Positions 1-12,503 of a DNA stretch of 12,503 bases are shown here, one piece after another. Numbering within the stretch: position 1 is the first letter of the stretch; each line of letters begins with the position of its first letter. Under the pieces are notes generated by a model. The model did not search any database, was not told the DNA's origin, and was given only the letters and a program-made list of their open reading frames with translations. Source of the stretch: Promethearchaeota archaeon (lineage in GTDB: Archaea > Asgardarchaeota > Lokiarchaeia > Sigyniarchaeales > SOKP01); assembly GCA_011364925.1 (NCBI GenBank), contig RDOA01000070.1, positions 1-12,503 of the forward strand, given 5' to 3'. The translations under genes and the position numbers were made by a program.

Positions 1-965
1 CTAAGCATTTCGAACTCCCTAAAAAAATGAAACGCGAAAAAAAGGGTGCAGATAAACCAGAAATGACAATGGATACTATACATGCGGTTGATGACATCAG
101 CTTTGAAGTAAAAAAAGGAGAGATTTTTGGATTTTTAGGGCCAAATGGTGCCGGGAAAACTACGACAATCCGAATGATGACTGGTGTCTTAAAACCAACG
201 AAGGGTAATATTGAGATTCTTGGTTTAGACGCTTGGAAAAATCAGATCGCTGTCAAACAATTCACTGGAAATGTACCTGAGATGGCAAATGTCTACTTTT
301 CATTTTCAGGTTGGGAAAATTTGATGTTTATAGGAGAGCTTTATGGAATTTCTAAAAAAGAACGGGTTATCACAGCGGAAAGCCTCTTAAAACAATTCGA
401 TCTATACGAAAAACGCAATCTTAAATCAAAAAAATATTCTAAGGGAATGAAACAACGATTATTGCTATGCATGGCATTAATGACGAATCCAAAAATCTTA
501 TTTCTTGACGAACCAACCGCTGGTCTTGATGTCCAATCAGCTAAAATTATAAAGCAACTAATAAGAGAGTACAATAAGCGAGGAGTAACGATTTTCTTAA
601 CGACGCACGATATGGATGTGGCAAACGAATTATGTGATCGGATTGCTATTATTAATCACGGTAAGATTATTAGCCTAGATACTCCGGATAATTTAAAGAA
701 ATTAACCCAGGAGTATCAAGCGATTGATCTCCAATTCATGAATGGCGTGGATAAACAAGAAATTAAAAACCTTAGTAACATCAAGGAGGTACAAGAAACT
801 CAAGACGGAGTTCACATTATTGTTGATGATATCCATGAGTCTATCTGTGAATTAGTGGATTACATCAAAAATCAGAATGTAAAAATTAAACAACTAAATA
901 CGCATCAACCAAAATTAGAGGAAGCTTTTCTAAAAATTATTGAACGGGGTGATAAACTTGATTGA
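1..965 (+). CDS. ABC exporter ATP-binding subunit, DrrA-like/ABC-2 type; probably 5'-truncated by the window edge
   Basis: Walker A GPNGAGKTT, signature YSKGMKQR, Walker B LFLDEPT, H-loop TTH and a ~90-aa C-terminal extension typical of this family. The frame is open upstream of ATG27 to the window start (KHFELPKKM), and KHF matches the usual N-terminal LTKxF strand, so the true start is likely before base 1. Confidence 0.93.
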   Translation, partial: KHFELPKKMKREKKGADKPEMTMDTIHAVDDISFEVKKGEIFGFLGPNGAGKTTTIRMMTGVLKPTKGNIEILGLDAWKNQIAVKQFTGNVPEMANVYFSFSGWENLMFIGELYGISKKERVITAESLLKQFDLYEKRNLKSKKYSKGMKQRLLLCMALMTNPKILFLDEPTAGLDVQSAKIIKQLIREYNKRGVTIFLTTHDMDVANELCDRIAIINHGKIISLDTPDNLKKLTQEYQAIDLQFMNGVDKQEIKNLSNIKEVQETQDGVHIIVDDIHESICELVDYIKNQNVKIKQLNTHQPKLEEAFLKIIERGDKLD

Positions 966-1746
966 AAACAATATAAGGTTAGAAGAACCTAAAATAAAGA
1001 CATTTGCTGTTCAATTAAAACGATCCTTTGTAATAACTAAAAAGGATTTAAAAATCTACTACAATAAACCTCCCGTTATAATTCAAGGGATACTTTTTCC
1101 GATAATATTATTCGTCGCTTTAACCGTAGGTAGAAATGTAGAATTAGTCTATGCGATTTCAGGATTAATGGCTATGATTACATTTTTAACATCAACTTCA
1201 ATAGGTCCAATAGTCTTCCCGTGGGAAACAATGAGAAGAACATTCGAACGATTAATAACTTGTCCAATTTCAATAAAAACTATTCTACTAGGGAGTGTTT
1301 GGAGTACTTTCATTTATGGAATTATTTTTTCTTCGCTTCCCTTAATATTTGGAATGATCTTCTTACCGGCTGAACTTTCAGTAAATCTAATAATAGTCAT
1401 TATTGGGATGATCGTAGCGGGATTAGCATTTGCTTGTTTTAGTCTTATATTGTCCGTACCTTCCACAGACACACCCGGAAATACTATGGTTTTTACGGTT
1501 CTAATTAAGTTTCCATTAGTATTCATGAGTCCGCTATTTATGCCGATAATTCTATCTCCAATTGCTTATATCTCTCCCTTGACCTATTTCGTTGACATAG
1601 TTAACACAGGACTAGGTGATAGCAGTGCTTTTGGATCGCTTGGGTTGCTTATTGATATTGGAGTTTTACTAGCCTTTGGATTAGGATTTCTATTTTTAGC
1701 ATTTCTATTACACAGTAAAACATTAGAAAGAAGATTTCGAGATTAA
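958..1746 (+). CDS. ABC-2 type transporter permease (DrrB-like), about 6 TM helices
   Basis: About six hydrophobic segments, ABC-2 motifs WETMRRTFERLITCPIS and SPLTYFVD, and an overlap with the ATPase stop. TTG958 is preferred over TTG940 because GGGGTGA (946-952) lies 5 nt upstream. Confidence 0.9.
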   Translation: MIENNIRLEEPKIKTFAVQLKRSFVITKKDLKIYYNKPPVIIQGILFPIILFVALTVGRNVELVYAISGLMAMITFLTSTSIGPIVFPWETMRRTFERLITCPISIKTILLGSVWSTFIYGIIFSSLPLIFGMIFLPAELSVNLIIVIIGMIVAGLAFACFSLILSVPSTDTPGNTMVFTVLIKFPLVFMSPLFMPIILSPIAYISPLTYFVDIVNTGLGDSSAFGSLGLLIDIGVLLAFGLGFLFLAFLLHSKTLERRFRD

Positions 1747-1794: not shown

Positions 1795-2532
1795 TCAGTA
1801 GATTTTGGGTACTAGTTTGTATTTTACTCGATTTCGATATTCCTCATAGCCATCCATTCCTTTTATAAGCATTTTTTCCTCAAATCGTATTCGCACAATC
1901 AACGCTATCGACCCAACAGCGGCAGGTATTAGCGATATCCAGGATCCTAACGCGATGGGAAGTCCAAGTATCATTACGATCGCTCCAGTGTAAAGCGGAT
2001 GACGAATATGGGCGTATAGTCCAGTATCAATAAGTTTTTGACCTTTATTTATATCCAATATTTTTGAAGCATAAGCATTTTGAACCATAGCAAGATCCAT
2101 GATAGTGAGACCAAGATTTAAGATCACAAGACCTATAATCTCCACATAGAAGGGAATTGTAACCCATTGGAAACGGTAATCTAATGGAGGTAATAATATT
2201 GCACCAAAAAACCCAATACTGATAAGTGGCATTATAAAGAGGTCTGATCGCGAAGAACTTTTTGTTTTTTCTGTAACACCAATTTTTTTTAATTTCATAC
2301 GATTTCGAATAACGCGTGGATTCTTCTTGTTTATGAGAGCAGTACTGATAGTAAAGTTTATCACAAATGAAATGATGAAAAGCCATGCTTCAATCCACAA
2401 CCAATCCTGAGCGAGAGGAAATAGGATAATTATGAACAATGCTGAAACATACACAGGGATGAGAGCTATCCCCCAAAGAGGAATGGGTTTATCCATCTTA
2501 TCAATTTCATTGGGTGGTGTTCCATTTGACAT
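1795..2532 (-). CDS. Isoprenylcysteine carboxyl methyltransferase (ICMT/PEMT/Ste14) family integral membrane methyltransferase
   Basis: Multiple TM segments and family motifs LIDTGLYAHIRHPLYTG and RIRFEEKML...YEEYRNRVKYKLVP. Start is ATG2532 or TTG2544. Confidence 0.9.
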   Translation of the reverse strand: MSNGTPPNEIDKMDKPIPLWGIALIPVYVSALFIIILFPLAQDWLWIEAWLFIISFVINFTISTALINKKNPRVIRNRMKLKKIGVTEKTKSSSRSDLFIMPLISIGFFGAILLPPLDYRFQWVTIPFYVEIIGLVILNLGLTIMDLAMVQNAYASKILDINKGQKLIDTGLYAHIRHPLYTGAIVMILGLPIALGSWISLIPAAVGSIALIVRIRFEEKMLIKGMDGYEEYRNRVKYKLVPKIY

Positions 2533-2544
2533 GATTTTAATCAA

Positions 2545-2683
2545 TGAGCAGTAGAATTAAAAATTATTCATTTCAGTCGCTTTTTCACTTAGTTTTTACT
2601 ATTTTAGGTAGATTTAAAAACTAAATTTTCTTATGGATTCATAACGATCTATATTCATAACGAATTCAAGAGACTTATTGAAT
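2545..2683. promoter_or_regulatory. Divergent promoter region with TATA-like boxes and a candidate PadR operator
   Basis: TTTTTAA on the - strand (2563-2557) about 25 nt upstream of ATG2532; TTTAAAAA at 2613-2620 on +; near-palindrome TTATG-gatt-CATAA at 2631-2644; perfect 11-bp direct repeat ATTCATAACGA at 2637-2647 and 2653-2663. Confidence 0.55.
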
Positions 2684-3265
2684 ATGTCTTCTGAGAAAAA
2701 TTTAGAATTAAGTCATGTTTCTTTTACTGTTTTAGGGCTAATATCAGAATATCCGTGTCATGGAAAAGATATAAATGGAAGAATTGAAGAAAGAGGTATG
2801 AGAGCTTGGACAGCTATAGGTGAATCATCTGTTTACGGAGTATTGAAGAATCTAAAGGAAAATGGATTAGTTGATTCGTGGATGGAAGAGGAAAATAATA
2901 GGCTAGTGAAAATTTACAAGATCACAGATAAAGGGATTAATATACTTAAGAAAAGGATATATAAAAGCCTTAATGAGTATAATGGTAGAAATGATCCTGA
3001 TTTCTATATGGCATTTTCAATGCTACCTTATTTATCTGAGAAAGAACTGACTGAAGTATTTAAAAATTCATTAAAAACGATAAAAAAACACAAATTGGAA
3101 TTGGAGAAAATGTTAGGAGAGAATTCTAAGATGCCATTGAATGTTAGGGGTTTGTTCATCCATCCAATTAATATATTACAAACGGATATTGAATTTTTAG
3201 AAATGGTTTTAGATGAAATTAAGAAAGGAGGAGGTCAAATTAACACAAAGACACATAATAAATAA
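2684..3265 (+). CDS. PadR-family winged-helix transcriptional regulator with long C-terminal helical domain
   Basis: VLGLISEYPCHGKDI...IGESSVYGVLKNLKENGLV...KIYKITDKG matches the PadR wHTH pattern. Start is ATG2684, or TTG2678 in the same frame. Confidence 0.92.
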   Translation: MSSEKNLELSHVSFTVLGLISEYPCHGKDINGRIEERGMRAWTAIGESSVYGVLKNLKENGLVDSWMEEENNRLVKIYKITDKGINILKKRIYKSLNEYNGRNDPDFYMAFSMLPYLSEKELTEVFKNSLKTIKKHKLELEKMLGENSKMPLNVRGLFIHPINILQTDIEFLEMVLDEIKKGGGQINTKTHNK

Positions 3266-4373
3266 TTTTGTTCATAGAATTGGTCATCATTGTGAATCCT
3301 CGTCGATGAGAGATTTACTTGAATTTCATGGTTTTCCTATGTCTGAACCGATGGTATTCGGTTTAGATGCTACAATGGGTTTCGGATTCTTTGACACTAC
3401 TAATAGTGTTTCGTTTATACCGGAATCTGACATACCCTTCTTCCTTGGAGGTAAGCAAGGAACAATAGAACCAAACTCTCTGGCTTGCCGTTTATTAGGA
3501 ATCACCTTACGGAAACAGTCATTTACTAGTGCTGATAAAGCGTGGGAAGAGTCAAAAATTATGCTAATCCAAAATCAACCTTTAATCCTCAAAGTTGATT
3601 TGGGATATCTAACTTATTTTGAAGAGGAGGGAGATATTCATTTCGGTGGACATGCGATTACTTTAGCGGGTTACGATGAGGAAAAAGGATTTGCTTATAT
3701 TGGTGATACAGACTATGAAGGATTCCAAGAAATCTCTATTGAAAAACTCAAGGAGGCGAGAAGTTCTGAATACGGCCCTAAATTCATGCACCCCAATAAC
3801 GCTCAATTTTCCATGACTAAAAGACCAGATGGGAAGCGCCCACCTTTAGCTGCTGGAACAAAAGTAGCAATTCAAAAAGTTGTAAACAATATGTTACGCC
3901 CCTCTGTAAATAATAACGGTATTCAAGGATTAAAACATTTTACCAATTCAATTCCATTGTGGAAAGAGAAATTGGTAGGAGAAGCTAAAGATCCCCAGGG
4001 AAAATCTATCTCACGCGCGAGGTTAATGTTTGAACTATTACATGGGTATATTGAGACCTGGGGTACTGGTGGAGCGAGTTTTCGCAATCTATATACGCAA
4101 TTTTTAGAAGAACTGCTCAGTCATCCTGAGATAAGAAAGGGACCTAAAGCATGGAGTAATGAAGACTTTAAGATTATAGAGGTTAGTATACCATTAATAA
4201 AGGATTCTGCCAAGTATTGGACTTTAATAGCAGAAACATTAAAAAAGGCAGCAGACGAGCACAAAAATGATTGTTTAAATAATGTAGATTTGAGTAAGTT
4301 GCAGGAATACGCAGAATTAATACTCAATAGGGAAGAAACATTGTTCAAGAATTTATTAAAACTAAGAATATAA
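3213..4373 (+). CDS. BtrH N-terminal domain (papain/C39-like fold) plus DUF4872-like C-terminal domain; putative cysteine hydrolase
   Basis: GHHCESSSMRDLL...SEPMVFGL, VDLGYLTYF...HFGGHAITLAGYD, YIGD and ETWGTGGASFRNLYTQFLEE are patterns I recognise from BtrH_N/DUF4872 proteins. Candidate triad is Cys27/His147/Asp165. The start codon is uncertain. Confidence 0.82.
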   Translation: MKLRKEEVKLTQRHIINNFVHRIGHHCESSSMRDLLEFHGFPMSEPMVFGLDATMGFGFFDTTNSVSFIPESDIPFFLGGKQGTIEPNSLACRLLGITLRKQSFTSADKAWEESKIMLIQNQPLILKVDLGYLTYFEEEGDIHFGGHAITLAGYDEEKGFAYIGDTDYEGFQEISIEKLKEARSSEYGPKFMHPNNAQFSMTKRPDGKRPPLAAGTKVAIQKVVNNMLRPSVNNNGIQGLKHFTNSIPLWKEKLVGEAKDPQGKSISRARLMFELLHGYIETWGTGGASFRNLYTQFLEELLSHPEIRKGPKAWSNEDFKIIEVSIPLIKDSAKYWTLIAETLKKAADEHKNDCLNNVDLSKLQEYAELILNREETLFKNLLKLRI

Positions 4374-4386
4374 AGGGATAGTAAAG

Positions 4387-4815
4387 ATGAGTGAAAAAAA
4401 TTTAGCAGCTCCATGTGGGATGTATTGTGGTGCGTGTAGATCATATTTAATACTTAAAAAGAATTTGTTAGAAGAAAAAGGACGCAAAAATGGTTGTAAA
4501 GGGTGTAGAATTCGAAATAAAAATTGTTCTTTTATAAAGAAAGATTGTGCGTTAATAAGAAAAAACGAAATTGATTTCTGTTTCGAATGCGATAGTTTTC
4601 CATGTTCAAATTTACAGAGGATTGATGGAAGATATTCTGAAAGGTATAATGTAAGTTTTATTCAGAATTTAAAAAGAATACAAGAAATCGGATTTGAGCG
4701 ATGGCTCGAGGAACAAGAAATTTTGTATCGATGTCCGGATTGTGGTGGAGAAATTAGCGTTCATGATAAAGAATGTTTTGATTGTGGCAAGAAAATAAAT
4801 CCAAATTTAAAATAA
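4387..4815 (+). CDS. Cys-rich DUF3795-like metal-binding protein with C-terminal zinc ribbon
   Basis: APCGMYCGAC, CKGCR and FCFECDSFPC pattern plus CPDC-x10-CFDC; 14 Cys in 142 aa. Confidence 0.82.
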   Translation: MSEKNLAAPCGMYCGACRSYLILKKNLLEEKGRKNGCKGCRIRNKNCSFIKKDCALIRKNEIDFCFECDSFPCSNLQRIDGRYSERYNVSFIQNLKRIQEIGFERWLEEQEILYRCPDCGGEISVHDKECFDCGKKINPNLK

Positions 4816-4837
4816 TGAATTTTAGGTATGAGTGAGA

Positions 4838-7333
4838 ATGGATAAAATTAAAGTGGTGGGAGCTAGGCTTCATAATTTAAAAAATTTGAACGTAGAAATC
4901 CCGAAGAAAAAAATGGTCTTAATAACAGGAGTATCAGGTTCAGGAAAATCAAGCTTAGCTTTTGACATTATATTTGACGAAGGAATGAATCGATACTTAC
5001 AATCTATAGGATTTCCCCCAAAATTTGAGGACGAAAAACCTTTTGATTTACTGGAAGGGTTAAGTCCTACTGTAGCAGTGGAGCAACGGACAACTCGAGT
5101 ACTTAATCCGCGTTCCACTGTGGGCACAAAAACTCGATTATACAACCTACTTAGGATGTTATATGCTACAGAGGGTTCCTTAATTTGTCCAATATGCAAA
5201 GAACCCGTAAATGAGAATCTTGAATGCAATATTTGTGGAATGGTCGTAGAACGATTGGAGATTAAACATTTCAGTTTTAACGAACCAAGCGGTATGTGTT
5301 TAGCCTGTAAAGGACGGGGTTACCAAATGCATCTTACAGAAGAACTGATAGTTCAAGATTACAATAAAAACCTTATTCAAATTACTAAAGCAGGATCAGC
5401 GGTCTTTGCAGATCAGATTCGATTTATTGAACAATTACCTAAATTTTATAATTTCGACATTAAAACACCATATAAAGATTTACCGGAAGAAGTTAAGCAG
5501 GTCTTCCTTTACGGAAGCGGTAAAAAACTTTCTTTTGATTGGGATTCGAAAACGTTTACGGGGACCTTAGAAAGAGTATTTGAAGGAGTTATTCCACACA
5601 TAGAGCGTGCTCTCACAGAATCAAAGAGTTCGTATCGCCGAGATAAAATTCATAAGAATTACATGTCATTGAAAAAATGCGAAGAATGTGAGGGATATCG
5701 AATAAACGAACAAGCAAGAGGGGTAAAATTAGGAGGAAAACATATAGGGGAATTGGGAATGATGCCTATTGATGAATTAAGCTCCTTTCTTGAAGATTTG
5801 AGTAAAAATAATATTTCAACGGTTCAAGGTAAAAATTTATGTGAATTAGTGATAAAAAGCCTTAAAAATATGAAGGATGTAGGATTAGGATACATTCATC
5901 TGCACCGTGCATTACCGACACTAAGTGGTGGAGAACTCCAGAGATTATCTTTAATGACTCATCTAGACGCAGGGATAGATTCCCTTATCTACATTTTAGA
6001 CGAGCCAAGTATGAGTTTACACGAATTGGAAAAGGATTCTTTAATAGAACTGTTAAAAAAGTTGAAACGATTAGGGAATACAATTATAGTTGTTGAGCAT
6101 GATAAACGTTTTATTGAGATAGCAGACCAAGTAATTGATATCGGTCCCGGTGCAGGAGTGAATGGCGGAGAATTAGTCTACCAAGGAGCATTAGACGGAT
6201 TGAAAAATGTAGATAAGTCCTATACTGGCCAATTTCTCACCGGTAAAATATCGTTACCAGTAAAATCGGATGAGTTAAAAAAAGTGGTCAAGGATTCAAC
6301 AATGTTTCTAACAATAAAAAATGTCAAAACTAACAATTTAAAGAATGTAGAAGTTAAAATTCCATTAGGCATGATGGTAGGAATTGCGGGCGTATCTGGA
6401 TCGGGGAAAAGTTCTTTAATTTTAGACACATTAGTTCCACTTTTGCAACCATTTTTCAAGCGTGGTAATGATAGAAATAAGATTGAAGATAATGAAAATG
6501 GTGAAGAGGAAAATGGAGAAGAACTTCTTGAATACTCTGGAATGATTAGCGGTTGGGAAAATTTAGATGAAGTTATCGTAGTTAGTCAAAAACCAATTTC
6601 AAGGGTTAAAACTTCTACACCAGCGTCATATATTGGGATTTGGGACAAAATTAGGAATATTTTTGCTAAAGTAGTCGAAGCAAAAAAACGTAAATATTCA
6701 GCGGGTCATTTTTCCTATAATTCCGATAAAGGACGATGTCCATCCTGCAAGGGAACTGGCGAACAAGACTTAAAGATATCATTTTTGAGTAGTTTTAATA
6801 TCTTATGCAGAGAATGTCATGGACTTAGATATAAGCCAGAAATACTAGAGGTAAAATATAAAGGTAAATCAATTGCCGATGTGTTAAATATGACCGTTTC
6901 AGAAGCAGCTAAATTATTCGCGTCAGATTCTAGCATATCCAATGTATTGCAGATCCTGGAAGATATAGGTATGGGGTATATAACTTTAGGGCAACCAGCT
7001 CCAACATTAAGCGGCGGAGAAGCTCAAAGAGTTAAACTCGCTAAGGAACTTGGAAGAGCTAGAAAAACAAGATCACTCTATGTTCTGGACGAACCTACAG
7101 TTGGATTATCGTTTTATGATGTAGTAAAATTAATAGAACTTTTAGATCAATTAGTACGAGAAGGAAATAGTGTCATAATTATAGAACATGATCCGGAAAT
7201 CTTATCATACTGCGATTATCTTATAGAATTGGGACCTGAAGGAGGACCAAAAGGAGGAAAAGTGATCGCAGAAGGTCCTGTAGCTAAAATTAAAGAGAAT
7301 ATTAACTCGAATACCAGTAAATATTTAAAATAA
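4838..7333 (+). CDS. uvrA: UvrA-family ATPase lacking the UvrB-binding domain (class II UvrA2/DrrC-like)
   Basis: GARLHNLKN, two GVSGSGKSS Walker A motifs, LSGGELQR and LSGGEAQR signatures, LDEP Walker B motifs, EHD H-loops and three Zn modules. Only 9 aa separate CPIC and CNIC, where canonical UvrA carries the UvrB-binding domain. Start is ATG4838 or GTG4832. The symbol denotes the family, not the housekeeping ortholog. Confidence 0.9.
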   Translation: MDKIKVVGARLHNLKNLNVEIPKKKMVLITGVSGSGKSSLAFDIIFDEGMNRYLQSIGFPPKFEDEKPFDLLEGLSPTVAVEQRTTRVLNPRSTVGTKTRLYNLLRMLYATEGSLICPICKEPVNENLECNICGMVVERLEIKHFSFNEPSGMCLACKGRGYQMHLTEELIVQDYNKNLIQITKAGSAVFADQIRFIEQLPKFYNFDIKTPYKDLPEEVKQVFLYGSGKKLSFDWDSKTFTGTLERVFEGVIPHIERALTESKSSYRRDKIHKNYMSLKKCEECEGYRINEQARGVKLGGKHIGELGMMPIDELSSFLEDLSKNNISTVQGKNLCELVIKSLKNMKDVGLGYIHLHRALPTLSGGELQRLSLMTHLDAGIDSLIYILDEPSMSLHELEKDSLIELLKKLKRLGNTIIVVEHDKRFIEIADQVIDIGPGAGVNGGELVYQGALDGLKNVDKSYTGQFLTGKISLPVKSDELKKVVKDSTMFLTIKNVKTNNLKNVEVKIPLGMMVGIAGVSGSGKSSLILDTLVPLLQPFFKRGNDRNKIEDNENGEEENGEELLEYSGMISGWENLDEVIVVSQKPISRVKTSTPASYIGIWDKIRNIFAKVVEAKKRKYSAGHFSYNSDKGRCPSCKGTGEQDLKISFLSSFNILCRECHGLRYKPEILEVKYKGKSIADVLNMTVSEAAKLFASDSSISNVLQILEDIGMGYITLGQPAPTLSGGEAQRVKLAKELGRARKTRSLYVLDEPTVGLSFYDVVKLIELLDQLVREGNSVIIIEHDPEILSYCDYLIELGPEGGPKGGKVIAEGPVAKIKENINSNTSKYLK
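6494..6523 (+). repeat. Imperfect 15-bp tandem duplication encoding ENGEE x2 in an acidic loop
   Basis: GAAAATGGTGAAGAG and GAAAATGGAGAAGAA, 13/15 identical. Confidence 0.6.
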
Positions 7334-7349
7334 ATAAAGTTAAACTATT

Positions 7350-10300
7350 ATGGAAATTAAAATTCGAGGAGCACGAGAACATAATTTAAAGGATATTGAT
7401 GTTGATATACAAGATGGGATTACAGCGGTAACAGGAGTATCAGGTTCAGGAAAAACTTCGCTTATATTTGACACATTATATAAAGAAGCGCGTCGTAGGT
7501 TTTTGGAAGCTTTTTCGGTCCGTAAAGATAAAGTAAACTTAAGCCCGGCGAAGGTAGAATCCATCAATGGACTTGGACCCATGATTGCCCTTGGTCAAAA
7601 TGTCCTAAATAGAAATCCTAATTCCACTCTTGCGTCAGCGACGGGTTTAATTCCTCTCTTTAAAATATTGTTCTCCAGATTTGGAGTAAGGAAGTGCCAT
7701 GTATGTGGTAATAAAATAACTGTATTACAAGAAGATGAGATTGTTGCCAAAATTGATAATTTAAGAAAGAAAGGGACCTTAAAAATATCTGCCTTATTGG
7801 TAAATAAAGTGAAAGGGAGTCATCATACGCTACTAGAACTTTTAGAAAAAGAATTTGGATCAGAAGCGGTTTTGGTAGATGGATCTTCTTTCACAACAAA
7901 TCTTAACCCAAAAGAACCTCACGACATTCAAATTCAAATTGGTCAAGTATCAGCAATGACCGATCTAAACACAATTAGAGGAATTATCCAAACTATAAGT
8001 TCATTAGGAGCAAATTCATTAATTATTGATACTAAATCAAGATCGATATCCATCTCTCGAGTTCCTGTGTGTTCGATATGCGGTACTTGGTTTGGAGATC
8101 TAGAACCGACTCATTTTACGAAAAACTGTCCTTATTGTAAGGGAGAGGGTTGCAAGCAATGTAATAACTCAGGGTATCACCCCCTCGCATCAAATGTTAC
8201 TTGGGAGGGACTATTTTTTACCGAGATCTTAGAAAAATCGGTAAAAGACTTAGTTTCTATTTTTTCTAGAGAAGATTTAGATGTCTCTGAAAGATTATTA
8301 CAGGAAATTAAGAAACGAGTTTTAGCTTTAAGCTCCGTTGGTTTAGATTACTTAGCATTGGATCGAATTTCTCCGACTCTATCGAGAGGTGAATCTCAAA
8401 GAGTTCGATTAGCTATAGCGTTATTAAGCGAGTTAGAAGATATAACTCATTTGCTTGATGAACCAACGATTGGTCAGCATCCTGCAGATACTGCACGAAT
8501 TTTACCTGTACTTCAAAAATTGGCAGGTCCAGTTATTTTTATTGAACACGATCGGGCAGCTACAGCGTTTGCAGATTATGTAATCGATATTGGACCCGGT
8601 GCGGGAAGAGAAGGAGGGAAAATCATATTTACAGGGACTTCTGCGGAATTATGGAAAGCTGATACTCCCACAGGTCGATATTTTAGTTTAAAAGACAAGG
8701 TAATTGCTCTAAAAAATAGACCAAAACCTCAGAGTTTTTTGACAATTAATAATGCTAATATGCATAACTTAAAAGATATAGACATTAAGGTTCCATTAAA
8801 TCGTCTAACGGTCGTTACAGGCGTTTCTGGTTCAGGAAAGAGCACTCTCGTAGAAGATGTTCTATATGCTACTTTGAAAGGAAAAAAGCCAATGGGATGT
8901 GATGGAATCATTGGTCTAAAAGTGAAACCTGTTATGGTAGATCAAGGACCAATTGGGAAAAATCCGAGATCGAATCCAGCAACATATACAGAGATCGCTG
9001 ATACTATTAGAAAATTGTTTGCCAAAGCTACTAAACTCAAAGCCACCTACTTTTCCTTTAATACTCCGGAAGGACAGTGTCCAACATGTAAAGGAATGGG
9101 TGCTCTCGAAATAAAGATGAGGTATTTGCCTTCTAATTGGCTTACTTGTCCAGATTGCAGTGGTCAAAGGTTTTCGGAAGATGTACTTGCTAAAACGGTA
9201 AATTTTGAAGGTAAAGAATATTCTATTGCAGAATTTTACGATCTTTCTATTTTAGAAGTTACAAAGATTTTTGAGAAAGAGAAAAGATTATCTACAGACG
9301 CTTTAAGCTCCATCAAGCAAATGCTAAAAGCTCTTAGTGACATTGGCTTAGGATATCTATCGCTTGGACAACCTTCTCCAACACTTTCAGGAGGGGAAGC
9401 ACAGCGAATTAAATTGTCAAAATATCTTGGGAGAAAATCCTTAAAGGATTCATTAATTATCCTTGATGAACCGTCAACGGGATTACATCCCCAAGATCTG
9501 GGAGGCTTATTAGCAATTTTAGATCGCTTAATTCGTAGTGGGGCTACTATTGTTATTGTAGAACATAATATAGACATCATCAGAGCTGCAGACTGGATCA
9601 TAGACCTTGGACCAGGTTCGGGACCAAGTGGTGGGACTGTCGTATATCAAGGTCCATTAAATCAATTTACGGAGGTAAAAAATTCTTTCACAGCTCAAGC
9701 ACTAAATGAAGAAAGTAAAATTTTACCATTAACTTCGAAAGAGAGAAAAGAAAGAAGAAGTTCAGAAAAGATTGTCATTCAAAACGCACATCTTCACAAT
9801 CTAAAAAATTTGAATGTTTCAATACCTAAAAGGAAACTTACTGTAGTCACGGGAGTTTCGGGGTCTGGAAAGTCTAGCTTGATGATGGATACGCTAGAAA
9901 AAGAAGCAAGTCGAAGATATTTAGAAACATTATCAATGTACGAGAGACAAAGTACTAAAGAAAGTAGCGAAGCTTTAGTAGAAAACATTCAAGGTTTAGG
10001 TATAACAGCTCTAATAACTCCTGAAAAAATTATGCAAGGGTGGTTTCTTAATCTTCGAAATACCATCGGAAAAGTTACTGAAATCACACTCCATTTGGCA
10101 AACATTTTCGCTTATATGGGTGAACGGGATTGCCCCAAATGTAATCAAAAAATGTTAAGGAAGGAAAAATGGTATTGCCCTAAGTGTAGTACTTCTATAC
10201 AACTTCCAAAACCAAGGCATTTTGTAAGTACAAACTACTCTGCGGCTTGTCTTAAGTGCCATGGAGTAGGCTCGTTTCAAGTCCCTAATCCAAATAAATT

Positions 10301-12221
10301 GATCATTCAACCTGAAAAAGCCCTTTGTAAAGGGGCCATGTATTCGCCGGGTTTCTTTCCTAAAGGTTTTCTATGTAAGCCGTATAATAGTGGTTACTAT
10401 GTTGTTCAAGCTCTCGCAACTCGCTATGGTTTTGATCCATTTGAAACACCTTGGAACGAAATGTCTGAAGCGGCTAAAAATGCTTTCTTATACGGTGATA
10501 AAAACCCTTTATATATAGACTATGAAAACAGAAAAGGAGAAGTACATAATCAGGAATTTGTTTTTCTGGGTTATTACGATCAATGGTTAAGAGATTGGGA
10601 TGTAGGAGGTACGTATACTGATAAAGAAGTATGTAATGCATGCAACGGAATGAAGTTACGACCGGAATATCTTGCTGTGACTCTTCTTGGATATAATATG
10701 CCGCAATTATGCGATCTTCCGTTAAAACACCTCTATGAAACACTAAAGGATGTAAGAATTGAAAAAAATATTCAAAGTTTTGTAAAAAATAGCCATAAAA
10801 TAATTCTAACCCGGTTAGAATTTCTTATTAAAACGGGATTAGGCTACATTAAATTGAATCGTGTCGCTGAGACTCTCTCTGCAGGAGAAGCTCAGAGAGT
10901 ACGTTTGGCAGGATTATTAGGCAGCGATTTATCATCGTTAACAGTCTTATTAGATGAGCCATCGAGAGGATTACATCCTTCTGAAATAGAGACATTGCTA
11001 GAAGTATTATACGAATTACGAGATAGGGGCAATACAATTATAATCATAGAACATGATCCCTTATTTATGAAAACAGCTGATTATATTATTGATATGGGAC
11101 CTGGAGCGGGAATTAATGGTGGTCAAATTGTAGCTAGAGGAACGCCAGAAGAAATTGAAAACTCAAAGAGTGTTACAGGAGACTGGTTAATAGGAAAAAA
11201 GAAATTTATGATATCAAGAGAACCTCGGAAATCTAAGAGTTGGTTAAAGGTTTTTGGAGCTAAAGAGAATAACTTAAAAGGTGATTTAGTTGAGATTCCT
11301 CATGGGTTAATAGTGGGGTTATGTGGGATTTCAGGTTCGGGGAAAAGCACTTTATTAATTGACACTTTAGGAAGAGCTCTCGTTCCTGCAAAGTATACAA
11401 CTTCAGTATCTCGAGAACCCGTCGATCCAGGAAAATATGAGAAGATTGAAGGCGCTTTACCCCAAACACTGCTAATAGATCAATCTAAAGTAAAAATTGG
11501 AAGCCCTTTGAAATATCTAGGAATAGAATCCTCTATAATAAAAATATACGCTGAAACTGAAGATGCAAAAATTTTAGGATTAAATGAAAAGAAATTAAAA
11601 ACGAGATGCTCTATGTGTGATGGACGTGGATATGTTAAAATAGATATGGACTTTTTACCAGATTTAATCGAAGATTGTGAAATTTGCAACGGTTCAGGTT
11701 ATCGGACTGAAGCTTGGCAAGTATACTTTAAAGGAGTATCGTTACCCAAAGTGAATAGTTTAACTATAGAAGAAGCATACAAATTATTTAGAGACAACGA
11801 AAGCATTGCTAGTAAATTAAAATATGCAAAGAAGGTTGGACTTGGTTATTTACAATTATCTCAACCCGCGCGCACACTTTCTGGAGGCGAAGCACAAAGA
11901 CTTAAAATTGTAAAAGAACTAGCTAAAAAATCTAATAAAAAAACGCTCTATATTTTAGACGAACCCACAATTGGTCAACATTTGGAAGACGTTTCTAATT
12001 TAATTAAGACATTAAATCTTTTAGTTGATAAGGGTCATACTGTAGTCGTTATTGAACATCATCCTCATGTCTTGGCGTCGTGCGATTGGTTAATAGAACT
12101 TGGTCCGGGAGCAGGTCCAGAAGGAGGTCGAGTGATTGCTAAAGGTTCTCCTAAAGAAGTCGCAAAATTAAATACGCCAACTGCATCGTACTTAAAAAAG
12201 GTAATGGAGGGTGGATTATGA
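7350..12221 (+). CDS. uvrA: Double-length UvrA-family ATPase (two fused UvrA units, four ABC modules)
   Basis: Four Walker A motifs (GVSGSGKTS, GVSGSGKST, GVSGSGKSS, GISGSGKST), four signatures (LSRGE, LSGGE, LSAGE, LSGGE), four LDEP, four EH loops, four D/E-x-GPGxGxxGG motifs and six Zn modules in one uninterrupted 1623-codon frame. Unit 2 starts near aa 807 (nt 9768). Confidence 0.92.
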   Translation: MEIKIRGAREHNLKDIDVDIQDGITAVTGVSGSGKTSLIFDTLYKEARRRFLEAFSVRKDKVNLSPAKVESINGLGPMIALGQNVLNRNPNSTLASATGLIPLFKILFSRFGVRKCHVCGNKITVLQEDEIVAKIDNLRKKGTLKISALLVNKVKGSHHTLLELLEKEFGSEAVLVDGSSFTTNLNPKEPHDIQIQIGQVSAMTDLNTIRGIIQTISSLGANSLIIDTKSRSISISRVPVCSICGTWFGDLEPTHFTKNCPYCKGEGCKQCNNSGYHPLASNVTWEGLFFTEILEKSVKDLVSIFSREDLDVSERLLQEIKKRVLALSSVGLDYLALDRISPTLSRGESQRVRLAIALLSELEDITHLLDEPTIGQHPADTARILPVLQKLAGPVIFIEHDRAATAFADYVIDIGPGAGREGGKIIFTGTSAELWKADTPTGRYFSLKDKVIALKNRPKPQSFLTINNANMHNLKDIDIKVPLNRLTVVTGVSGSGKSTLVEDVLYATLKGKKPMGCDGIIGLKVKPVMVDQGPIGKNPRSNPATYTEIADTIRKLFAKATKLKATYFSFNTPEGQCPTCKGMGALEIKMRYLPSNWLTCPDCSGQRFSEDVLAKTVNFEGKEYSIAEFYDLSILEVTKIFEKEKRLSTDALSSIKQMLKALSDIGLGYLSLGQPSPTLSGGEAQRIKLSKYLGRKSLKDSLIILDEPSTGLHPQDLGGLLAILDRLIRSGATIVIVEHNIDIIRAADWIIDLGPGSGPSGGTVVYQGPLNQFTEVKNSFTAQALNEESKILPLTSKERKERRSSEKIVIQNAHLHNLKNLNVSIPKRKLTVVTGVSGSGKSSLMMDTLEKEASRRYLETLSMYERQSTKESSEALVENIQGLGITALITPEKIMQGWFLNLRNTIGKVTEITLHLANIFAYMGERDCPKCNQKMLRKEKWYCPKCSTSIQLPKPRHFVSTNYSAACLKCHGVGSFQVPNPNKLIIQPEKALCKGAMYSPGFFPKGFLCKPYNSGYYVVQALATRYGFDPFETPWNEMSEAAKNAFLYGDKNPLYIDYENRKGEVHNQEFVFLGYYDQWLRDWDVGGTYTDKEVCNACNGMKLRPEYLAVTLLGYNMPQLCDLPLKHLYETLKDVRIEKNIQSFVKNSHKIILTRLEFLIKTGLGYIKLNRVAETLSAGEAQRVRLAGLLGSDLSSLTVLLDEPSRGLHPSEIETLLEVLYELRDRGNTIIIIEHDPLFMKTADYIIDMGPGAGINGGQIVARGTPEEIENSKSVTGDWLIGKKKFMISREPRKSKSWLKVFGAKENNLKGDLVEIPHGLIVGLCGISGSGKSTLLIDTLGRALVPAKYTTSVSREPVDPGKYEKIEGALPQTLLIDQSKVKIGSPLKYLGIESSIIKIYAETEDAKILGLNEKKLKTRCSMCDGRGYVKIDMDFLPDLIEDCEICNGSGYRTEAWQVYFKGVSLPKVNSLTIEEAYKLFRDNESIASKLKYAKKVGLGYLQLSQPARTLSGGEAQRLKIVKELAKKSNKKTLYILDEPTIGQHLEDVSNLIKTLNLLVDKGHTVVVIEHHPHVLASCDWLIELGPGAGPEGGRVIAKGSPKEVAKLNTPTASYLKKVMEGGL

Positions 12222-12503
12222 CTTGGATTCCACTTTTATTAACTGATCCCTCCCCATGTTTAAGATATTTGGTTTTAACTGAATTACTAAATTATTCTAA
12301 AAATGAAGAGGAAGTCCAAGAGTTATCGGAACTGCGAAAATCAGATCAACTTGTACAAAGTCTGTTTAAACTTCAAAAACGGGATGGATCTTGGGATTCT
12401 TTTGGTTTAATTCGGATAACTTCCAACAGTAATCTCCATATAACTTCTATGGCATTACAAAGATTGGGATATCTGGGATTTGATTTTAGAAATCCAGCAG
12501 TAC
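12218..12503 (+). CDS. 3'-truncated protein with QW motif; probable prenyltransferase/squalene-cyclase-like alpha-alpha toroid fold
   Basis: Not in the ORF track. ATGA overlap with the uvrA stop, GGAGG at 12206-12210, frame open to the window end: MTWIPLLLTDPSPCLRYLVLTELLNYSKNEEEVQELSELRKSDQLVQSLFKLQKRDGSWDSFGLIRITSNSNLHITSMALQRLGYLGFDFRNPAV. LQKRDGSW fits QxxDGxW and is followed by a TSMALQRL helix. Confidence 0.72.
   Translation, partial: MTWIPLLLTDPSPCLRYLVLTELLNYSKNEEEVQELSELRKSDQLVQSLFKLQKRDGSWDSFGLIRITSNSNLHITSMALQRLGYLGFDFRNPAV

Follow-up and report, generated by a model that had tools for sequence, protein, structure and literature searches.

Why would an archaeal operon led by a PadR-family regulator carry six UvrA-type ATP-binding cassette (ABC) modules in two adjacent genes, with neither uvrB nor uvrC beside them? 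The question was raised by a 12,503-nucleotide window, the whole of contig RDOA01000070.1 (C83; 12.5 kb) of a Promethearchaeota genome of 3.9 Mb, 112 contigs and ~35% G+C. The 3′ part of the operon encodes a fused double UvrA followed by an alpha/alpha-toroid protein, and this pair was found to recur as a two-gene unit in archaea and bacteria. The operon is read here, with a probability of roughly one half, as a PadR-run, inducible response to a compound that binds or damages DNA; it would act independently of UvrB and UvrC, with the UvrA units working on DNA and the toroid serving as receptor or adaptor. The best matches lay in Hermod-/Promethearchaeota (76–95% identity), and the nearest relatives of the 1623-amino-acid (aa) double UvrA were Hermod-, Prometh- (Loki-), Hod- and Thorarchaeota. 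Since the closest homologs lie in Asgard lineages, the host is, as judged by homology, an Asgard archaeon and not a bacterium. Asgard archaea are the closest known relatives of eukaryotes.

From position 2,684 to the contig end, six open reading frames (ORFs) lie on the plus strand, encoding PadR, a BtrH protein, a DUF3795 protein, a single UvrA paralog (UvrA833), the double UvrA and a fragment of the toroid protein, as claimed by an earlier account based on the letters of the window (the sequence-only reading). That account placed all gaps and overlaps at or below about 22 nt. This is correct for the junctions at +13, +22 (or +16), +16 and −4 nt (ATGA), but not for PadR/BtrH, which overlap by 53 nt if the BtrH start is ATG 3213. 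A terminator scan found no terminator-like sites on the plus strand inside the operon. The statement that the window lacks uvrB and uvrC was likewise correct, and the proposed check for a separate canonical uvrABC in the host located all three genes on other contigs: C28 has uvrB next to a 962-aa uvrA, and C53 has uvrC. A complete canonical UvrA accompanied the double UvrA in six of six genomes checked, usually adjoining uvrB. The three UvrA units of the window are therefore extras over the canonical UvrA. The two units of the double UvrA, UvrA833 and the canonical UvrA of the host are about equally distant from one another (31–39% mutual identity), and the splits between them are old.

Walker A motifs were located at residues 29, 491, 835 and 1326 of the double UvrA and at residues 33 and 520 of UvrA833, bearing out the count of six ABC modules in two adjoining genes. 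All six carry Walker A and Walker B, with four LSGGE signatures and two conserved variants. Each unit of the double UvrA is one accessory domain short. Unit 1 (residues ~1–805) matched positions 2–285 and 403–918 of the UvrA family model and keeps a UvrB-binding-type domain; the insertion domain is absent, as the match skips ~286–402 of the family model and 303–427 of 9gxk. Unit 2 has the reverse pattern, with the insertion domain (PF17755) at residues 1015–1076. The UvrB-binding-type domain of unit 1, although diverged, aligned to residues 26–302 of class I UvrA. Unit 1 was modeled with AlphaFold2 (AF2) from 27 family members; the mean predicted local distance difference test score (pLDDT) was 86.4, and residues 120–240 scored mostly 83–93 per 10-residue block. 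Of this model, 768 residues aligned to 3uwx_A, the UvrA of a UvrA-UvrB complex (Z 40.5), against 595 to T. maritima UvrA with residues 117–399 deleted, and the extra domain is therefore predicted to have the canonical UvrB-binding fold.

Homologs of the double UvrA (1619–1685 aa, 52–95% identity) were found in Asgard archaea, Bathyarchaeia, Chloroflexota and Aminicenantes. In 53 members of the family, all four ATP sites had invariant Walker A, Walker B and H-loop motifs. The signature of the first nucleotide-binding domain (NBD-I) reads LSRGE in all 53 unit 1 sequences and LSAGE in 52 of 53 unit 2 sequences, and both NBD-II signatures were LSGGE. This pattern indicates that all four ATP sites are under selection, a point in favor of the proposed reading. 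A class I UvrA has a UvrB-binding domain and an insertion domain in every protomer; here the former was present in unit 1 only and the latter was likewise not in every protomer. The model for tandem complete UvrA (NF001885/PRK00635) gave 890.6 bits against a cut-off of 3054, each unit being one domain short.

UvrA833 matched positions 1–127 and 249–919 of TIGR00630, with 128–248 missing. The UvrB-binding domain is thus lost and the insertion (DNA-binding) domain kept, and Walker A, signature and Walker B are intact in both ABC modules. CxxC motifs at 119 and 156 stand on either side of a short linker at the site of the lost domain. The sequence-only reading likened this protein to DrrC and Ecm16. 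The domain layout supports the likeness but the sequence is nearer class I, with 670 bits to 2r6f (class I) as against 512 to D. radiodurans UvrA2 (2vf7) and 437 to Ecm16 (7sh1).

Full-length double UvrA was found in ~30 of the 151 genomes of the phylum; it is patchy in the window's genus (~3/12) and near-universal in another Asgard family (18/19). The toroid gene lay directly after the double UvrA in each of the 18 Asgard loci retrieved, in most of them sharing 4 nt with it, a linkage that also favors the proposed reading. A search seeded with the toroid gave 274 relatives in contigs of one genome per species, and among the best 80 loci the 3′ end of a double UvrA lay upstream on the same strand in 75. 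The five exceptions comprised two loci at contig edges, two with runs of N just upstream and a single real one (L099). NCBI locus tags of the two genes were consecutive. Carriers of the pair were found among Asgard archaea (Loki, Hermod, Hod, Heimdall and Thor), Bathyarchaeia and Chloroflexota, together with an Aminicenantes and a Patescibacteria bin. Outside the Loki/Hermod/Hod clade no further neighbor of the pair recurred in the loci read, and the minimal unit is therefore the two genes. In a FastTree phylogeny of 53 double UvrAs, the window sequence falls in a Loki/Hermod/Hod clade, apart from a clade in which Heimdall, Thor, Bathyarchaeia, Aminicenantes and Chloroflexota sequences are mixed. 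Because this second clade is both archaeal and bacterial, the tree implies that the double UvrA moved between domains of life; archaeal and bacterial members are 52–57% identical.

The toroid ATG overlaps the stop codon of the double UvrA (ATGA), and the remainder of the gene was not found in the assembly. The 95-aa fragment has no Pfam match of its own. Full-length homologs (342–351 aa, 73% identical over the fragment) matched PF13243 SQHop_cyclase_C with 36–48 bits (cut-off 26.1) and contain three QW-like repeats of the QxxxG(S/A)W type. The AF2 model of a homolog is an (alpha/alpha)6 toroid (pLDDT 84.4; predicted template modeling score, pTM, 0.87). The label "QW-fold" in the sequence-only reading was thus upheld by a family match above the gathering score and by the modeled fold. 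The best structural match was squalene-hopene cyclase 1gsz (Z 14.9 over 237 residues, root-mean-square deviation 3.9), and further class II terpene cyclases were among the top matches. Toroids of unrelated kinds also matched in large number at Z 11–13, and the results of Foldseek and VIA-align were generic. The DxDD motif was not recovered, as the L016 homolog has no D.D[DE] and 30 toroid sequences have no such invariant columns. The LanC-type Cys-Cys-His zinc site is absent, since the family has one invariant Cys only. The family is marked by an invariant loop, AGYRRLxHSxxGCRxNTT, located in a low-confidence part of the model, and by a conserved basic C-terminal tail. A thioester-like reading of GCxxN in this loop was dropped as unsupported.

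In the ESM Atlas, relatives of the toroid carry only the automatic name "squalene-hopene cyclase C-terminal domain". Known clusters of toroid proteins number about 2,000, and only two fusions were found in 5.8 billion proteins. Such fusions were set aside as weak evidence of interaction, since the one inspected seems to stem from a frameshift in the overlap of the two genes and subsequent read-through. Asgard ORFs of ~1930 aa were ruled out as double UvrA-toroid fusions and consist of two complete class I units. Another distant toroid paralog is present in the window's genome (C73:7094-7918, minus strand), with 27% identity to the toroid of the variant operons described below.

In the Loki/Hermod/Hod clade, UvrA833 precedes the pair. 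The order PadR-BtrH-(DUF3795)-(BtrH2)-(methyltransferase)-UvrA833-double UvrA-toroid was found in eight other genomes for which the upstream part was fetched, so that the neighbors do recur, as the sequence-only reading had proposed to check. A 223-aa S-adenosylmethionine (SAM) methyltransferase is usual before UvrA833 in this clade and is missing in the window. At 16 loci, a VOC gene (137 aa, PF00903, E 1e-13) of the glyoxalase/bleomycin-resistance fold, with its His/His/Glu metal ligands kept, lies 40–80 nt after the toroid on the same strand. The equivalent gene of the window would lie past the contig end.

The gene set can be divided. Of 12 genomes of the window's genus, 11 have BtrH_N but only ~3 the double UvrA. 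Four genomes of this genus without double UvrA have a variant operon, PadR-BtrH-toroid paralog-(DUF3795)-(BtrH2)-methyltransferase-UvrA833. The internal paralog (QW'; 338–342 aa) matched the partner family over 290 columns with an hhalign probability of 98.9%. It is missing from all operons that have the double UvrA and toroid pair, and each form of the operon has a toroid. Since UvrA833 is found in the variant operon without the double UvrA, it belongs to the PadR/BtrH module, and the double UvrA and toroid (with VOC) are an add-on. The proposal of a single six-gene system therefore holds in that the gene set recurs, but it is two modules and not one fixed set.

In Thor-type loci, the genes near the pair encode a SAM methyltransferase, a DUF3788 protein, a divergent BtrH-like protein that lacks the catalytic Cys, and two small products that match nothing in Pfam. 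These neighbors echo the Loki-type accessory set. The features of the window and of related loci are collected in Table 1.

Table 1. Features of the 12,503-nt window and of the related loci (designated L) mentioned in the text.
Feature	Location	Strand	Evidence or remark
DrrA-type ABC exporter ATPase	27..965	+	TIGR01188 drrA, 315.7 bits (cut-off 312.45)
ABC-2 permease, exporter partner	940..1746	+	PF01061, 47.3 bits
ICMT/PEMT-like membrane methyltransferase	1795-2544	-	Between exporter genes and PadR
TATA-box-like element TTTAAAAA, putative archaeal promoter	2613..2620	+	Read from sequence
Two direct repeats ATTCATAACGA, candidate PadR operator	2637-2647, 2653-2663	+	
PadR-family regulator, operon gene 1	2684..3265	+	PF03551, 45.9 bits (cut-off 27)
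BtrH_N + DUF4872 papain-like cysteine acyltransferase/hydrolase (predicted)	3213..4373	+	PF14399, 106 bits; PF16169, 72.5 bits
DUF3795 Cys-rich protein with C-terminal zinc ribbon	4387..4815	+	PF12675, 39.8 bits
Single UvrA paralog (UvrA833), 831 aa (ATG 4838) or 833 aa (GTG 4832)	4838..7333	+	TIGR00630; PF17755, 66.3 bits
Double UvrA (two fused units, 1623 aa) with four ABC modules	7350..12221	+	
Double UvrA unit 1, UvrB-binding-type domain, residues ~120-240	7707..8069	+	PF17760, E 4e-4
Double UvrA unit 2, insertion domain kept, without UvrB-binding domain	9786..12221	+	TIGR00630 positions 1-126, 247-924
Alpha/alpha-toroid gene, first 95 codons, cut by contig end	12218..12503	+	Homology
Variant operons	L123:4141-11746; L124:4021-11615; L125:2863-9563; L126:4630-10623		
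Thor-type arrangement	L023:3575-7335		Similar in L019, L021, L022, L028-L032
Complete tandem UvrA, other Asgard families	L119:2525-8410; L120:6657-12446; L121:4865-10621	+; -; -	
HNH-BtrH fusion genes	L016:17249-18676; L125:7552-8967	-; -	PF01844
Actin-family gene	L061:9765-10808; L125:1562-2707	+; -	PF00022

PadR, the first gene in every orthologous operon examined, passes the Pfam threshold for the N-terminal winged-helix PadR domain. Between the TATA-like TTTAAAAA and the PadR start codon (ATG 2684) lie two exact copies of ATTCATAACGA, 16 nt apart. The two exact matches compare with 0.41 expected, and 14 of 200 shuffles reached two. Orthologous operons have a TTTAAATAT box at a comparable distance from the PadR start and repeats or palindromes of their own at the equivalent place, for example TCTCATATGAGA twice in L017 and L118. 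The repeats fit a candidate repressor operator that has co-diverged with PadR, for which TTTAAAAA would be the promoter element; PadR would bind there and release transcription in response to a ligand. A scan for bacterial promoters gave matches at chance level and is irrelevant for an archaeal host.

The BtrH protein has both the BtrH_N and DUF4872 domains above threshold and a papain-like Cys/His/Asp set from which activity is predicted. In an alignment of 15 homologs, C27 is kept in 13 and both H147 and D165 in all. BtrH_N is present in single copy in the window's genome, as the operon gene, and across five related genomes seven of seven BtrH_N matches fell inside the operon. Two related genomes have an HNH domain (PF01844; 37.3 and 44.4 bits, cut-off 21.4) at the N terminus of the BtrH_N/DUF4872 gene, a fusion that gives a hint of a possible role at DNA for the BtrH-like enzyme. 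Thirteen Cys of the DUF3795 protein are invariant, among them those of CX3CX2C (residues 10–17) and CxxC...CxxC (116–133). The CX3CX2C motif resembles radical-SAM iron-sulfur sites; the protein is far too small for such an enzyme.

Upstream of the operon, the DrrA-like ATPase scored above the TIGR01188 cut-off and adjoins an ABC-2 permease, identifying a DrrAB-type exporter. In L015, L035, L059, L061, L068 and L117, a DrrA ortholog (65–81% identity) is found at a distance of 2–14 kb on one side or the other of the operon, and orthologs of the DrrA/ABC-2 exporter (61–81% identical) are near the operon in many relatives and in four of five genomes searched. The permease has a single ortholog per genome, which is near the operon in four of the five. 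The exporter is thus loosely linked to the operon. The ICMT/PEMT-like gene was not found at the equivalent place in related loci, and in L117 an ornithine/arginine decarboxylase-type gene takes its position. In several Loki-type genomes an actin-family gene (PF00022, E 1e-116 to 1e-129) is found a few kb from the operon, probably as synteny only.

The proposed reading was reached because the repressor type, the small-molecule enzymes, the daunorubicin-type exporter, the VOC enzyme and the UvrAs without UvrB docking together resemble the self-protection of antibiotic producers. In the first module, PadR would sense a small molecule, the set of BtrH, DUF3795 and methyltransferase would modify it chemically, and UvrA833, acting independently of UvrB, would clear the compound or its adduct from DNA. 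In the second, the double UvrA, an asymmetric covalent pseudo-dimer with four ATP sites, one UvrB-binding-type domain and one insertion domain, would scan DNA with ATP and pass what it finds to the translationally coupled toroid, a presumed ligand receptor or adaptor. The gene of a metal-dependent enzyme of the glyoxalase/bleomycin-resistance fold comes next in most close relatives, and the nearby DrrAB-type exporter would expel the compound. Consistent with this model, PadR, the DrrA-type exporter, the PF00903 gene and the SAM methyltransferase are neighbors typical of drug or xenobiotic resistance. A precedent is provided by Ecm16, a UvrA paralog without the UvrB-binding domain, which confers echinomycin resistance that needs ATP hydrolysis but not UvrA, B, C or D (PMC9328131); both Ecm16 and DrrC clear intercalators from DNA with ATP and without UvrB or UvrC (PMC9328131).

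Several observations weigh against this reading. In Chloroflexota and Bathyarchaeia the pair occurs by itself, detoxification genes being absent from its surroundings, so that its role need not be drug-related, and its high conservation and presence in 18 of 19 genomes of one family would fit a housekeeping DNA task equally. The search found no biosynthetic cluster or known toxin source linked to the operon. It is by domain layout alone that UvrA833 would count as class II, and the drug-resistance analogy depends on that assignment. Docking of the toroid on the UvrB-binding-type domain is doubtful, and was downgraded because this domain is the least conserved segment of the double UvrA family and because the paralog QW' occurs with a UvrA that lacks it. 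Finally, UvrB is found in nearly all carriers of the double UvrA, and in 114 of the 151 Asgard genomes searched, a co-occurrence that does not discriminate between dependence and independence.

A wider reading, which we hold only tentatively, is that the double UvrA and toroid form a UvrB-free DNA-surveillance machine common to archaea and bacteria of anoxic sediments, in which the toroid effector would replace UvrB; Asgard archaea would then have wired the pair into an inducible genotoxin operon. An unlikely alternative to this UvrB-free role is that the double UvrA, and perhaps UvrA833, is another sensor for nucleotide excision repair, loading canonical UvrB so that UvrC can cut, with the toroid as an accessory. 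The UvrB-binding-type domain of unit 1 is confidently folded in the model and UvrB is at hand in nearly all carriers, in favor of this alternative; the conservation of the double UvrA across domains of life and its near-universal presence in one family are also accommodated, and the complete UvrA tandems of other Asgard families indicate that a fused UvrA can be a sensor. However, every carrier checked already has a full canonical UvrA, the domain on which UvrB would be loaded is the one conserved least, and in none of the loci read does the pair adjoin uvrB or uvrC. We consider it rather improbable that the operon repairs DNA-protein or DNA-peptide cross-links together with aldehyde damage, the UvrAs finding the lesion, BtrH trimming the protein, HNH nicking and the glyoxalase-fold enzyme removing the aldehyde. 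The papain-like fold of BtrH_N, its weak matches to Peptidase_C39 and its conserved Cys/His/Asp would suit the trimming, the HNH fusions the nicking, and the VOC metal ligands, kept as in glyoxalase I, the last step. Against this, only 2 of ~15 BtrH genes have the HNH domain, and the BtrH gene of the window does not; the characterized BtrH member is an acyltransferase on small molecules, and a small-molecule ligand is what PadR, the methyltransferase and the exporter suggest.

The genes could also belong to a natural-product cluster, for instance for a modified peptide. The toroid would then be the cyclase and BtrH an acyltransferase or leader peptidase, tailoring would fall to DUF3795 and the methyltransferase, and DrrAB would serve for export and the UvrAs for self-resistance. 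UvrA-like genes do mark actinomycete clusters for DNA-intercalating products (PMC10413001), the toroid fold is that of terpene and lanthipeptide cyclases (Z 10.8–14.9), the DrrA-like ATPase also matches a lantibiotic-protection ABC model, and the variant operon has its toroid paralog directly after BtrH. This origin is nevertheless considered very improbable, as neither a precursor gene nor an enzyme that would form a scaffold turned up, the toroid has neither DxDD nor the LanC-type zinc site, and the core pair stands alone in many phyla. Least probable of all is an anti-virus or anti-plasmid defense in which the pair would survey DNA for foreign features. Its patchiness in the window's genus, the transfers between archaea and bacteria implied by the tree and the methyltransferase nearby would be compatible with defense, and the PADLOC models of the ATPases mad3 and mad8 match the UvrA modules with 412 and 175 bits. 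PADLOC gave nothing for the toroid, BtrH or DUF3795, however, and only generic ATPase and methyltransferase matches overall, so that a known defense system was rejected. MADS requires mad6, mad7 and mad8 together (10.1101/2023.03.30.534895), and of the MADS models only mad3 and mad8 matched, on UvrA modules, with no PADLOC match for any further operon protein and the mandatory partners absent. The core pair has no fixed nuclease, its neighbors in other phyla are unrelated housekeeping genes and not defense islands, and its sequence conservation is far above that usual for defense genes. The mad3 model (374 positions), which matched the ABC modules of the double UvrA and UvrA833 unusually well (412 and 248 bits), spans the whole of an NBD-II and appears to resemble a UvrA NBD-II-type ATPase.

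To our knowledge, UvrA paralogs without the UvrB-binding domain are widespread, and the few with a known role serve antibiotic self-resistance in Streptomyces. The double UvrA and toroid pair offers a handle on the roles of such paralogs and on the re-aiming of UvrA-type ATPases. A natural asymmetric UvrA, with one accessory domain of each kind and fixed variant signatures, could help to tell apart what each of the four ATP sites does in damage sensing, and the operon points to an unstudied inducible Asgard response to chemical DNA stress. In a literature survey on class III, tandem or fused UvrA, on UvrA with prenyltransferase or squalene cyclase and on Asgard UvrA, in which subscription journals were thinly covered, the pair was undescribed.

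The partner protein shares its fold, its three QW-type repeats and its SQHop_cyclase_C match with class II terpene cyclases and other (alpha/alpha)6 toroids such as the complement thioester domain and LanC. It differs from the terpene cyclases in being a single domain of ~345 aa without DxDD, with its own invariant loop and basic C-terminal tail, and the structural match is generic. Tandem full-length UvrA fusions, both the Chlamydia type (PRK00635) and the Asgard proteins of ~1920–1960 aa, likewise have two UvrA units per polypeptide. They differ in having two UvrB-binding and two insertion domains, with no toroid domain or gene in the three loci examined.

Compared with canonical UvrA (2r6f, 3pih, 3uwx and 9gxk), all three units of the window have the same fold, zinc modules and ATP motifs, and the unit 1 model aligned with Z 40–45. 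Each unit, however, lacks one accessory domain, two units are fused and both NBD-I signatures of the double UvrA are altered (LSRGE and LSAGE). The double UvrA is coupled to a toroid gene and not to uvrB, and a true class I UvrA is found elsewhere in the genome. A parallel in domain layout is with the class II UvrAs (DrrC of S. peucetius, Ecm16 and D. radiodurans UvrA2). As in these, the UvrB-binding domain is missing from UvrA833 and unit 2 but both ABC modules and the insertion domain remain, and the DrrAB-type exporter near the window UvrAs recalls the daunorubicin drrABC set. Class IIa resistance proteins are stated to lack the first zinc finger (PMC9328131). UvrA833 keeps CxxC pairs at the site of zinc module 1, a putative metal site, and is nearer class I in sequence. 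Unlike the class II systems, the window's set is found in an archaeal host with no antibiotic biosynthesis cluster, and is partnered with a double UvrA and its toroid.

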